From Eledone cirrhosa (taxonomy: Eukaryota), in the NCBI GenBank assembly GCA_964016885.1, contig OZ024755.1, positions 5,642,001-5,706,000 on the forward strand: a stretch of 64,000 nucleotides of DNA, read 5' to 3'. Made by a program: the position numbers and the translations under genes. Shown in pieces: positions 4,365 to 60,950 of the stretch. Below the pieces are notes generated by a model, which had not been told where the DNA came from, did not search any database, and worked only from the letters and a program-made list of their open reading frames with translations. Numbering within the stretch: position 1 is the first letter of the stretch; every line of letters starts with the position of its first letter.

Positions 4365-4460
4365 GGTAAAGACTCTTTTCCTATGCCCACTCTACTACCC
4401 AAAGTATTGAGTACTCTGGTGCGTTATGGTCCACCTGATTCCTTACCACACTTCCTTCGT
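4365..4460 (+). mobile_element. TA-embedded fold-back element family A, shortest copy
   Basis: It shares the ~80-nt tail ccactctactacccaaagtattgagtactctggtgcgttatggtccacc..ccttaccacacttccttcgt with five other copies. It has a 10-bp fold-back taggtaaaga/tcttttccta and (TA)n on both sides. Confidence 0.85.
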
Positions 4461-4517
4461 TATATATATATAACAGAATTCCGAAGCGAATGTATTTGTA
4501 GTACTGTCATCAGTGAT

Positions 4518-4792
4518 GGAGGTTCGTGGCCTAGTGGTAAGGGTGTCTGACTTACGATCATAATGTCGTGGGTTCGATTCCTCGGCTAGTGTACGTGTAG
4601 TGTTCTTGAGCAAAACATTTCACTTCACGTTGCTCCAGTATACTCAATTGGAAAAAAAAGTGAGTACCAGCAATAGCTTGGGGTTTAACCCTACGATGGT
4701 CTAGCTTCTTCTCCAGGGGAGTCTTGTATTCTCAATCGCTTCACACCACGGGAAACCGAGATAAGTATTGACCTGATTAGCCTCCCAACTTG
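4518..4792 (+). mobile_element. SINE family S2
   Basis: A box tggcctagtgg, B box ggttcgattcc and the S2 core are present. Confidence 0.85.
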
Positions 4793-5520
4793 AAGACAGA
4801 AAGTACTTTTGTATCTCTGACATCTAAAATGTCTAAAGTCTAAGCCACTCTGTCTGTTTTTATCAAAGTATGCTACAACCCAATAACCTTATATGGGGTC
4901 AAAATCAGAATTAGAACCTTATATTTAGCAGACTATCAAACATTGAGAATATCTTGTCAGTGGCATTGTATTTTGTCCAAGGTGGAAGCACTTAACTACC
5001 AGACAGCCTAATACATCTACATGAAAATAAAGCAACGCAGCGTGGTAACAACTAATATGTATTGACAGTAACTATAAAATTGGCAAGCGATTCGTATCTT
5101 GAAGTGCTAAGTTGGACTGGCCGTCTCTTATGGTTATAACTTAGAGAAAGAGAGATAGGCTTTTTCAAGCTAACTTGAATGCAATACATCCCATTGTCTT
5201 GATGTTGTTTAGCCCTAGGTAACTTCTGACCAAGGAAGCCTATTTTTCGATATAGGTTTTTCCAATGATAATCAACCCGTCATTTTAGAAGTTTTCTAAT
5301 TCTAAACTACATTATTCAATATGTCCATTTTTTATTTAACCCTTTTGTTATCAAATTCTTAATGAAATATTCTGTCTGTTGATATGACCACAATATAATT
5401 ACTGAAGCTACGAAAAGAGTTAGTTAATAAGAGAATAATTTATTACATCTTGACGGTATATAGCGGTGTTAATCAGCGTGACTAGCTGAAGTATGATATA
5501 ATAGCTAACGATTAAGAATA

Positions 5521-5711
5521 ACTGTTTCTACTTTTGGCACAAGGCCAGCAATTATCCCAGTGTATTACTGGTACTTTATTTTATCGACCCCGCAAGGATG
5601 AAAGGCAAAGTTAGCCTTGGCGGGATTTGAACTCAGACCATAAATGGCCGTAACTCTTTGCTGAAAAGCATGGCGTCAGACCCTCTACCGATACTGCCAA
5701 TCCACCGCCCT
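5521..5711 (-). mobile_element. SINE family S1 with 13-bp TSD
   Basis: Full S1 copy with TSD acgattaagaata at 5508-5520 and 5715-5727. Confidence 0.9.
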
Positions 5712-5772
5712 ATTACGATTAAGAATAGTAAACAGTATATGCAGCTAAGTCTACAATTTAAGATCTTATATA

Positions 5773-56680: not shown

Positions 56681-57661
56681 TTTGTAGAAAGATTCTCAGA
56701 AATATGTATCTATTTTGAGGTAAGATTTTAGGGTAACTATGTATGTCTCATAGACTGTAACAACACGGTATATATTTTGTTGTCAGGGCTGGTGTATAAT
56801 ATTTTACTAATACAATAATAATTAACTTTGGTATGTTCACAGATGGAACCATTTCCGTTCTCTCCCCTTATCTCTCTCCCTAGCCATCTAACTACCTATC
56901 CGTCTTTCGCTCTATCAATCTCTCTATCAATCTCTTTCCGTCTCTTTCCCTTTACCAATCTCCCTCTCTATCAATCTGTCTATCTATCTCTCCCTCTCAC
57001 TTACTCTCTCTCCATACCTATCTCCCTCTCCATCTCTCTCCCCATCTATCTATCTATTTCTCTGTATCTCTCTCCCTCTTTCGCTCTCCCTCTATCAATC
57101 TGTCTGTCTATCTCTCCCACTCACTCTCTCTCTATCTATCTCACCCCTCCCTCTATCTCTCTATATCCCCCCTCTCTCCCTCCCCACTCTATCTATCTTT
57201 CTATCTATCTATCCCCTCCCTCTATCTCTCTATATCTCTCCCCCTCTATCTCTCCAGGCAAATATCTGTTATTGTTTAGAGTAGAACAAGTCACATAAAT
57301 CAGTAAAGAATTCCTGAATATATTTAATTATTTATGACAATGTCAGAGTAAGTTAGATCTCCCTTACTTGTATTTACATATCCCAGAGAATAACATTGTT
57401 CCTTAGTTTCCTCTGAAGCACCAGTTGATTATACTTCATTACTCACATCATTTCTTGCTTTACATACTTTCCATTAACCCTTATGATATATGATGCTTTC
57501 CTTGTTTATTACATAGCTGCGACTTGTTATGAAGTTTCACTAGTTTTTCATTTGCTGTTTTATCTAAAGAAATGAGCTTATTAAGCTCGACACATTGTAG
57601 GATTAATTCCACGGATGTGATTACAGTCTCTGATATATTTCCTACATAATTGGGTAGAGTG

Positions 57662-57900
57662 AAGACCGGCGTGTGACTAACTGGTTAGTCTGCTGGACTG
57701 GACTCATTATTATGAGGTCAGGAGTTCGATTCGAGGACCAGGTGGTGCATTGTGTCTTTGGGCTGAGCATTGGGACTTTGAGCGGAGCATTGTGACTGAG
57801 TGGAGTATTATGACTGAGTGGAGCATTGTGACTTTGAGTGGAGCATTGTACACTCACTCTCTTCACGCCATGGGAACCAAGATAGGCCTCCGGGCTCGAG
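57662..57900 (+). mobile_element. Degenerate S2-like SINE with an internal 20-bp duplication
   Basis: B box gagttcgattcg and a repeated tgactgagtggagcattg. Confidence 0.55.
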
Positions 57901-60535
57901 ACAGAGCTTTACTTGGCTGGAGGTCATCTCAGAAGAGGGTCCAGCCTAAATTTATTAAAAGAGAAACGAAGGTCCTGAGTTCGATCTCACTGTATGACAT
58001 CATGGGCAAGTGTCTTTACCACAGCCCCAGAACGATAGTCAAATTGAGGGTGAAATTAGAGAGCCGGAGCGAAACTGTCACATATTCTGTCAGCTGATTC
58101 TGTCTCAGAATTGCTTTAATCATACAAGTGCGCGCGTGTGTGTATGGAATAGTTCGTAACACGTGACTTCACGGGTCGGATGCTGGTTTACAATTTCAGG
58201 ACCTCATATCAGAAGTGAAAGACAAACAAAAACAATATGATAAGTGTAAACGAAGAAAATCAGCAAAGCGCAACAGTCCCCGACAAAGTCACAAGAAGTG
58301 ACGAAAGACATTGAAGAATCAAGCGGTTAATTAGTTGCTTGATGAACTGATTGAATGATTTGATATTTGATCAATAAAACTAACGTGAAATTTAGAGGTG
58401 CGTGTGTTTTCATTGGCAGTATGACACTCCGAAATAAAAACAATATCTGAATATTTGCTAAATGTATATTTCAGTCAATGAAACATATATATGCCCGCAA
58501 ATTTTTGGGAGCAAATCCCTTTTTTATATTTATAAAGTATAGCGTTGTGACAAACATAACAGCGTGACAAATTATTTGCCTACTTGGCAATTTAGTTAGA
58601 CATTGTTCCTTATTGTCATACAATCAAACTCCATCGAGTTCTCCTCTGATCTTTATCATCACTGGTTTCATCAAATACGTAACCATCAATTACTATGGCC
58701 CATCCAATCAACTTTATAACTTCCCATTAAAATATCTAATCGTTGTACTAATATATAGAATTTCTTTGGTCTCAAAAAACAAATCTCACTCTCACAAGCA
58801 AAAAAATATCTGAATATAATTTAGGGCAAAGAAATTAGACTTTGTGGTGTTCCTTCTTTTCTCAATTATGTTTGAAATGTGAGTTAAGTAAAATGGCTGC
58901 CGTTGACTGTCCTTTTGAGGAAATGATATGTTGAGATGTTCTTACTTGTACATCAATTGAAGGCCATTTTAAATGAGAAGTGAAATTTGGTGGCGAATTA
59001 TTTCATTCTCCATGAATTTATTGATTCTATACTGACTGTTAGATAGAAAAAAGATTAATCCTCGCCATTATTGGAAATTGTTATCAGATATGTCTACAAC
59101 AAAGAACACTTTGCCATCAAGAAAACTACATGAAGATAAAAAACATATATACATATATACATTTATTACTATTACTATATACGTTATATGTATACATATA
59201 CATGAACATACATATATACATATAAATATATACACATATATGCACACACATATATACATATACATACATATATATATATACATACATGCACACACAAACA
59301 TACATATATATATATACACACACACAAACATACATATATATATATATATATATATATATACACACACACACAAACATACATATATATATATATATGTTTG
59401 TGTGTGTGTATATATATATATATATATATATATATATACACACACAAACATATATATATATATATATATATACACACACAAACATATATATATATACACA
59501 CACAAACATAGATATATATTATAGATATATACATGCACACAAACATACATATATATATACATACAAACATATATATATACATACACACACATGCATAAAT
59601 ACATACATAAACATATATATATATACATACACACACATGCATAAACACATACATAAACATATATATATATATATATATACATACACACACATACATAAAC
59701 ACACATATATATATATATATACACACACACATACATAAACATATATACACACACACACATGCACAAACATATATATATATATACATACACAAACACATAT
59801 ATACACACACACACGCATACACACACACACACACACACACACACACACACATACAGTCAGTAGAAACCATTAGCAGCTATGTCCAGCCAGACTCACTAAG
59901 TAGTAGAGCTGAACCAGTCGGCATTTGAGATTTGAAATTCCCATAAGCAAGCAATAAATAAATAAATAAACAAACAAACAAAATAATAAAATAAATAAAT
60001 AAAGAAGATAAATAAATAAATAATATATAAAAGATCAAACGACAGATCGCTAAAAGTGGAAAGGTAAAACTACTGTGGTATTTTAAAATCTACGTTTTCA
60101 AAGAAATATACGTGAAAGAGCAGACAGATTCATTAAATGCTAACAACTAACAAATGTAGACATCCAAATTTATATTGTCATCTCATTTTTTTTTTCTCCT
60201 CCGAAAGGAAAGAACGGAATGAGACTAGACAAGAAGAAACGAAGAAGAGTTAAAAGAAAAGAAAAGTAACAAATGTATGAGATATAAAGCTAGAAAAGAC
60301 AGAAAATGAAGCAGTTAACATCCATTCTGTCAAATTATTAGAGTCACGGGAAGATTCATTATAATAAAGATATGGGAGAAATTGTTTGACTTAAGTGCTA
60401 GAGTAAAACGTGAAGCAATTGCTTTTGACTGTGTACAAGGCTATTTTCATTAGAATAATATATGATTGAATCGGCCTTTGTATATTACTGGTATAGATGT
60501 AATCGATCTTGAGGCATATATATATATATATATAT

Positions 60536-60762
60536 AGTTATGTAATAAACAACATAAGATAATTATTTCATTTACCAAAGGTTTTACGAAGACAGACGAA
60601 GACTGATGATTGAGGGCAGACGTTTGTGCCAAGCTCGTCTGTCTTCGTGAAACCTTTGGTAAATGAAATAATTATCTTATATTGTTTATTACATAACTAA
60701 AAAGCTCTGTAGCCTACATAGAGCGCTCTCTTTTCCTTTACCTTTCCTACGGAAATACTTCA
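60536..60762 (+). mobile_element. TA-embedded fold-back element family F
   Basis: Inverted arms of ~63 bp (60536-60599 and 60635-60699) and a tail at 60700-60762, with (TA)n on both sides. Confidence 0.9.
60603..60665 (+). ncRNA. Hammerhead ribozyme core (family F), 5' strand of stem I lost at the fold-back junction
   Basis: CUGAUGA-U UGAGGGCAGACG uuugugccaagcu CGUCUGUCUUCG U-GAAA-CC UUU G GUA-aaug. Stem II is 12 bp with three G-U pairs, and stem III is 3 bp. Confidence 0.78.
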
Positions 60763-60780
60763 ATATATATTATATATATT

Positions 60781-60950
60781 TATTAAAATAACAGATTAAA
60801 GTTTAAGCAAAGAATCGCAGCGATTCTTTGCTTAAACTTTAATCTGTTATTTTAATAAATATTTGCTCTAGCGTTCTTATATATTTGATATATATTTATC
60901 CTTATCGAGCCCTCTTTGAATTTTAGTCTTCACATTTATTATTATAACTA
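60781..60950 (+). mobile_element. TA-embedded fold-back element family C
   Basis: Perfect 37-bp hairpin tattaaaataacagattaaagtttaagcaaagaatcg-cag-cgattctttgcttaaactttaatctgttattttaata, then a ~93-nt tail. Confidence 0.9.

Follow-up and report, generated by a model that had tools for sequence, protein, structure and literature searches.

The DNA analysed here, called the window below, is a 64,000-nt stretch of the 3.0-Gb Eledone cirrhosa assembly (GCA_964016885.1, contig OZ024755.1, positions 5,642,001 to 5,706,000). The window has 34% GC, is rich in microsatellites and contains no convincing open reading frame (ORF). Most of its short inserts lie within (TA)n runs and consist of a foldback, in which an inverted copy is followed by a sense copy, and an unpaired tail. 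Type I hammerhead cores are present in several of them. Such an insertion pattern has been described for Penelope-like elements (PLEs; PMC8557442). A first-pass annotation of the window had reported a TATYGAGYRCT-like 11-mer in the 3' tails of the dissimilar insert families A, B, C, E and F and of two orphan inserts, and had interpreted it as a conserved cis-acting signal. We find that this motif forms the 3' arm of a bulged hairpin that is conserved and present twice, and that marks both insertion ends of PLEs of the Hydra clade.

From 5' to 3' the hairpin consists of RCTC, an upper stem and loop that vary in length, a bulge with U and usually one further base, GAGY and RCY. The copy found in the tails is termed hairpin 1. 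In family A it is seen in a short tail insert at 4389..4415 on the plus strand (ACTC 4389-4392, TT bulge 4407-4408, GAGT 4409-4412, followed by ACT) and at 19387-19413 in a plus-strand insert in (TA)n at 19255..19458, which has a foldback arm and a tail of about 80 nt. Four more A copies were recognised as pattern matches with a pairing arm, three on the minus strand (29552..29578, 42315..42341 and 43437..43463) and one on the plus strand (48814..48840). The family B insert at 41702..41882 (minus) has a tail of about 70 nt, a hammerhead core at 41830 and the hairpin at 41764-41743. A B copy with a decayed hairpin at 11097..11130 (minus, E 0.027) resembles the B copy at 41707-41813. The third B hairpin, at 43172..43193 (plus), is accompanied by a hammerhead at 43154 on the minus strand. 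An antisense orientation of the B motif was considered and rejected, since the B hammerhead lies in the inverted arm.

Family C contributes a hairpin 1 with a long AT-rich upper stem at 41962..42010 (minus), a tail fragment at 46229..46239 (plus) that has kept the 3' arm and lost the 5' arm, and a foldback insert at 60780..60950 (plus) with the hairpin at 60865-60913. The family E insert at 22008..22440 (minus) has an inverted arm, hammerhead cores at 22338 (plus) and 22228 (minus) and the hairpin at 22116-22088. The second family E insert, at 55074..55275 (plus), starts with a type I hammerhead at 55074, has the hairpin at 55187-55215 and extends its tail to a (TA)15 at 55276. Family F is represented by a foldback insert at 60537..60762 (plus), with a hammerhead-like core at 60603 and the hairpin at 60704-60727, and by a hairpin 1 at 30159..30182 (minus), a pattern match with a pairing arm that the first-pass annotation had not listed. 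The orphan hairpin at 6017..6046 (minus) has a 5-bp upper stem and a TC bulge and belongs to a cluster of 5 sites in the loci examined. The other orphan, at 43856..43878 (plus), is decayed in its 5' arm, with a TCTC arm and a CT bulge, and gave no hit with a covariance model.

All nine 11-mer sites were confirmed in position and strand, the last one starting at 43868 instead of 43869. In the window the motif is not enriched by count: TNGAGYRCY has 14 matches, compared to 9.5±3.3 in shuffled sequences, and 11 of 100 shuffles reach 14. Thirteen of the 14 matches lie in short-insert tails and are preceded at a distance of 13-20 nt by an RCTC arm, unlike the one at 45247. The motif is not unpaired, as had been proposed, but pairs with the upstream RCTC. 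Its distance to the (TA)n is 37-87 nt for the copies of the window and ranges from 42 to 87 nt across families, instead of 35-60 nt; the terminal (TA)n ascribed to the B copy at 43183 is absent.

That the position of the motif is non-random was confirmed in two ways. In 59 stretches of the genome picked by coordinate only (590 kb), a (TA)4+ followed 35-100 nt downstream of TNGAGYRCY in 47 of 105 matches. The same test upstream gave 11 of 105, and three control motifs gave 4/61, 10/139 and 4/114. Second, a set of 21 foldback inserts with tails of 55-130 nt was assembled from the same stretches blind to the motif. It comprises 9 sequence clusters. The sense-strand motif was found 17-28 nt into the tail in 16 of the 21 inserts, 11 of these from family A, and in 5 of the 9 clusters, and one insert additionally had the antisense motif.

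The pairing of the two arms was analysed in the same coordinate-picked DNA. A pairing RCTC arm accompanied 48 of the 105 motif matches, compared to 4.8±1.8 in 20 shuffles; it was present in 38 of the 47 matches near (TA)n and in 10 of the 58 others. In 21 hairpins from different families or positions, 99.2% of the cells pair and 29 change on both sides, a number equalled by none of 500 shuffles. The bottom pair is AU in 11, GC in 8 and GU in 2 of these hairpins, and the pair above the bulge is UA in 11 and CG in 6. The bulge begins with U in all 38 tabulated hairpins, which is partly fixed by the search patterns. Among these 38, hairpin 1 of the E. cirrhosa genome is mostly closed by A-U, and hairpin 2 and all ten hairpins from metagenomes begin with G (GCTC). 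A further observation is that ACTC-N-GAGT also forms the hammerhead stem III of several Hydra elements (PMC8557442, File S2; loci L300, L304, L309); its four pairs are identical to those in the lower stem of the tail hairpin.

The raw count in the window would be in line with a linear motif of promoter or DNA type, or with a resemblance that AT-rich repeats share by chance. Covariation, positional enrichment and the recurrence in other hosts described below speak against it, so that we give this explanation practically no weight. Chance likeness in particular is refuted by the positional enrichment, the covariation and the covariance model hits in metagenome loci, and nothing in our results supports the internal promoter role that had been listed among the possible functions.

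Walking outward from the tails in genome loci led to Hydra-type ORFs, with the clade motifs DKT, CxCx5C, CxxC and CxH (PMC8557442), for families C, A, G, H, E and B. Open frames of 709 aa in C and 719 aa in A contain a YRDD reverse transcriptase (RT) motif and a C-terminal YIG-type endonuclease (EN). At the N-terminal RWK motif, RW is kept and the third residue varies (RWR in A, B and C, RWI in G, RWK in H). In place of DKG, SDKT is found in A, B, C, E and G and ADKT in H. The CxCx5C linker is present, and the EN has no CCHH but CxxC and CxH around conserved E and N residues. Since a Pfam search of three of these ORFs returned no meaningful family, the assignment is based on motifs. On this sequence evidence, families A, B, C and E are the 3' ends of their own Hydra-clade PLEs. 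The ORFs of the other hairpin families are 38-55% identical to the family C protein, so the families are not tied to a single mobilising machinery, as had been assumed. Each of A, B, C and E encodes its own enzyme, and they share the signal because they are members of one clade.

Insertion into (TA)n was observed for the hairpin-bearing Hydra-type families. Family C, with a length of 3.3 kb, has at least 150 copies that are 97-100% identical in the endonuclease region and is therefore young. A canonical hammerhead is found near the 3' end in B, E and G. Of 30 young family C copies (L140-L169), 28 have the core CAGAAGA in place of CUGANGA, about 990 nt after the query, whereas CTGAAGA is retained in a related copy in L139. 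The ribozyme of this apparently active family possibly lacks activity or is a variant. Family A lacks a canonical core and has a hammerhead-shaped hairpin whose core bases are altered (window 19320-19375; L296). No parent ORF turned up for the two orphans, for which no aimed search was made. Family F, discussed below, may be non-autonomous.

Two other identities were considered and rejected. Neptune-type elements, the top GIY-YIG matches in the genome, were excluded as parents because the 3' ends examined are without the motif. They have a CxxC finger before GIY-YIG and a CCHH inside it (L090-L119), which are not seen in the ORFs behind the hairpins, and a Neptune-type family with both ends visible has a tail of about 45 nt lacking the motif. 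In L090-L119 the covariance model gave four hits with E<0.1, which belong to short inserts of their own, and hairpin-bearing inserts beside Neptune-type elements (L125, L134, L186) are separate insertions in their TA-rich ends. Non-LTR retrozymes, which are tandem non-coding hammerhead units, were rejected since the copies in the window are dispersed and stem from coding families, whose truncated ends they are. A retrozyme-like arrangement was noted in L290, where eight family B 3' ends, each with hammerhead and tail, follow one another head-to-tail about 1.1 kb apart. At 5819-5950 of L048, a hammerhead element with a hairpin of 1-nt U bulge lies directly behind a Hydra-type ORF. Other hammerhead families (L130 7772-9923, L035, L041, L088), one of them in a tandem array of about 490 nt, had no hairpin detected within 350 nt.

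In full-length family C elements the tail continues into a second hairpin just before the ATG. The same was then predicted for the other families and found by pattern. The second-hairpin pattern gave 2723 matches genome-wide, compared to 296 for a reversed control, the count including a tandem satellite and nested copies. Matches in A, G and H run into Hydra-type ORFs, and of the 18 matches to the family E pattern all eight fetched lead into an ORF. For family B the pattern gave only a nested match, and its second copy, which is divergent, was found by walking to a full-length locus. Thus, in full-length elements of A, C, E, G and H the segment from the hammerhead ribozyme to the ATG contains two hairpins, and in those of B it contains hairpin 1 and the divergent copy. 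The hairpins are spaced by 78 (A), 71 (B), 89 (C), 97 (E), 90 (G) and 99 (H) nt, and the tail length equals this spacing. As a separate observation, the family A hairpin with its flanks forms a 58-nt tandem satellite in L209-L211.

The insertion ends were mapped with 468 alignment ends on references of the same six families, summed by hand. A (TA)n was abutted by 358 ends, 24 read through and 86 ended otherwise. When an end abutted (TA)n, it was positioned 4-10 nt before hairpin 1 or hairpin 2 in 304 of the 358 cases, and only 4 ends were more than 20 nt away from either hairpin. Both kinds of ends were also seen in copies chosen independently of the tail: family C copies selected by the ORF alone were 15 short and 15 tailed, and family B copies selected by the upstream untranslated region (UTR) were 8 short and 12 tailed.

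To look beyond E. cirrhosa, six published Hydra consensi (PMC8557442, File S7) were inspected by eye, and the hairpin was visible in three. Hydra-2_Amil from a coral and Hydra-2_Ajap from a sea cucumber have a full hairpin at the end, and Hydra-1_Ajap has two copies at the 5' end before the ATG. In the whole supplement of that paper, six 9-mers of the motif have 7 occurrences, 4 at the Hydra termini just named and 3 within Naiad or Chlamys sequences. A metagenome scan with a single protein found no relative. Selecting for the RT protein alone yielded 37 partly redundant metagenome contigs. The stretch before the ORF is kept in five of these loci, and both hairpins are present in L300, L304 and L309, where they are 61 nt (L300) and 69 nt (L309) apart. 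Additional hairpins were found in L305, L323, L331, L332 and L333. A covariance model trained on the E. cirrhosa genome alone gave 11 hits with E≤0.1 in the 37 loci, all at such positions.

Besides the hairpin inserts, the window contains an abundant dispersed repeat of about 200 nt that is SINE-like in size and copy number (2825-3052, 5512-5729, 6046-6242, 7616-7806, 9685-9961, 16298-16483, 16949-17384, 19638-19806 and 20825-21302). An Rfam scan of the window gave only microsatellite-driven miRNA matches and no hammerhead among the best 150 of 321 rows.

From the position of the two copies we consider it probable that the hairpin is an RNA signal that positions the RT to start cDNA synthesis 5-9 nt upstream of each copy. 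A read-through transcript would contain, in this order, the 3' UTR, the hammerhead, hairpin 1, hairpin 2 and the ORF start. The element protein would bind this transcript at the hairpins, perhaps with one protomer of a dimer at each, and its GIY-YIG domain would nick the (TA)n target. Priming by the nicked 3' end could then occur on the short, TA-rich sequence that lies 5' of a hairpin. Use of site 1 would lead to a short end without a hairpin, whereas a start at site 2 would lead to a tail, which would always carry hairpin 1 and never hairpin 2. Because hairpin 1 would be copied into the tail, the motif would appear at a fixed place in unrelated tails. When both sites are used on the two target strands, the foldback-plus-tail inserts of the window would result. 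A conserved and positionally fixed cis signal of PLEs, as proposed, is supported, and RT recognition is the best-fitting of the suggested roles, but the conserved entity is a structure present twice and not a linear motif.

The hairpin might instead be a general protein-binding site for ribonucleoprotein assembly or translational self-control, with the ends being set nearby by TA microhomology. The location of hairpin 2, 26-69 nt before the first ATG in six families, would suit such a function, and both end sites begin with TA-like bases. However, although the 5' regions are AT-rich throughout, only 4 of the 358 ends are more than 20 nt away from a hairpin base. In addition, the end offset is near-constant while the hairpin spacing varies from 71 to 99 nt. 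We regard this explanation as rather unlikely.

Also unlikely, in our view, is a role of the hairpin in RNA processing, in which a host nuclease or the element protein would be directed to cleave the RNA, or to form its 3' end, 5-9 nt upstream of the hairpin, and the RT would start from the two RNA 3' ends thus produced, in the manner of ordinary target-primed reverse transcription. This would account for the same end positions and the same conservation. What is known of Poseidon_Ac points to another route, since its RT initiates at two internal sites of the sense RNA, between which the tail lies, and its protein is predicted to be a dimer (PMC11167929). The dominant product was unchanged when the RNA was extended at its 3' end, indicating that initiation is internal on unprocessed RNA (PMC11167929).

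The strand and the nucleic acid in which the signal is read bear on two further explanations. In the 38 hairpins, G-U type pairs exceed A-C type pairs by 10 to 2, which favours the sense strand of an RNA, although this count is partly circular. A reading in DNA by the GIY-YIG endonuclease, in a cruciform or single-stranded intermediate, with the ends arising when a transposition intermediate is resolved, is disfavoured by this bias. The variable upper stem, the U bulge and the C(UUCG)G loop of some family C copies also suit RNA better, and the short-ended copies lose both hairpins. In its favour, the AGYRCT core is self-complementary, EN-mediated resolution has been proposed for the tails (PMC8557442), and the D. 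virilis tail is needed for EN recognition, as reported in PMC11167929, the citing paper. On balance we find a DNA signal improbable. The remaining explanation takes an antisense transcript as the template and the protein-bound hairpin as a stop signal, at which copying halts 5-9 nt short. Antisense templates have been argued for from head-to-head palindromes (PMC3846280), and the antisense strand folds more stably than the sense strand in 27 of the 38 hairpins. The wobble bias, in contrast, is towards the sense strand, and internal initiation on a sense template was demonstrated in vitro for Poseidon_Ac (PMC11167929). A stop signal on an antisense template therefore appears very improbable to us.

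Several observations weigh against an RNA start signal at the hairpin. The functional claims are all inferred from position. [quoted passage not shown] Thermodynamic folding did not favour the sense strand, which was the more stable one in 9 of the 38 hairpins. Part of the hairpin set was chosen by a rule requiring pairing, and the covariation, folding and wobble counts therefore lean towards structure. Sets chosen without the 5' arm agree with them: 20 multi-copy clusters selected on the 3' half and the TA distance alone, after exclusion of five tandem-repeat loci, comprised 13 with a 2-nt-bulge hairpin, 1 with a 1-nt bulge, 4 antisense readings of a near-palindromic site (two of them checked) and 2 unrelated sequences. 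For the ends, the 86 not abutting (TA)n were omitted from the count and 24 read through; the TA-like microhomology makes the end positions uncertain by 2-3 nt, and many loci were fetched by tail queries, which favours site-2 ends. The second copy in family B, seen in 2 loci, has a GCAC/GTGC stem, a 5-nt loop and no bulge, yet B ends cleanly 9 nt before it. In family F neither a parent ORF nor a second hairpin was found in 30 loci and two pattern searches, which gave only tail-TA-other joins. Outside E. cirrhosa, the Hydra-1_Amil and Hydra-1_Crog consensi match only partly and Hydra-1_Obim does not match (PMC8557442, File S7), and among the five metagenome loci with a pre-ORF stretch, L310 is partial and L316 has no recognisable hairpin.

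A more far-reaching idea, which we put forward tentatively and as somewhat less than an even prospect, is that Hydra-clade elements of several animal phyla encode a twin RNA ruler, i.e. two hairpins, each bound by one RT-endonuclease protomer, that set the starts about 6 nt upstream. If true, this would be the first defined initiation signal for the telomerase-related RT group and would account both for a tail on one side only and for the foldback insertions. The one in vitro study on the choice of an internal RNA start by Penelope-like RTs maps the two starts and names no signal common to the families. The short covarying hairpin keeps a fixed distance to both ends and is conserved as far as coral and sea cucumber elements, which makes it directly accessible to experiment. 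The hairpin also predicts element ends and tail length from the sequence, helps to place short hammerhead inserts in a clade, and might be used as a compact handle by which a chosen RNA is loaded onto such an enzyme.

The Hydra clade, its hammerheads, the (TA)n target and the tail were already known. A literature search found no description of the hairpin, with subscription papers, Repbase reports and preprint supplements being outside its scope. The families described here correspond to the C-terminal EN+ PLEs of the Hydra clade (Craig et al. 2021, PMC8557442) in having a single RT and GIY-YIG ORF with RW(R/K/I), DKT, CxCx5C, CxxC and CxH, a hammerhead near the 3' end, of canonical form in B, E and G, (TA)n targets and inverted 5'-truncated copies. 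The accessible parts of that paper mention neither the hairpin nor its duplication nor its link to the ends. The tails are about 70-100 nt here, whereas 30-40 bp are given for PLEs (PMC8557442), and the hammerhead cores of A and C are atypical. Poseidon_Ac (Frangieh et al. 2024, PMC11167929) is similar in its two end positions downstream of the hammerhead, the tail between them and its AT-rich targets. It differs in that it starts inside the ORF, within its AC-rich stem-loop, whereas here both sites precede the ATG, each just 5' of a conserved hairpin copy. A conserved signal across families is not described in the accessible parts of the Poseidon_Ac study (PMC11167929). Non-LTR retrozymes and non-autonomous derivatives of PLE pLTRs (bioRxiv 10.64898/2026.07.22.740005; PMC4209133) likewise are short and dispersed and have type I hammerheads derived from PLE pLTRs. 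Unlike these tandem non-coding units, families A, B, C and E derive from coding elements, of which they are the truncated ends.

The structure also resembles, by description only, a bulged RNA stem-loop that is recognised by an RT in its own RNA. Hepadnavirus epsilon and the 3' stem-loops of LINEs are such RT-recruiting stem-loops. They belong to other RT lineages, whereas the Hydra-clade hairpin is present twice and cDNA synthesis would begin 5' of the stem, leaving the hairpin copy in use out of the cDNA.

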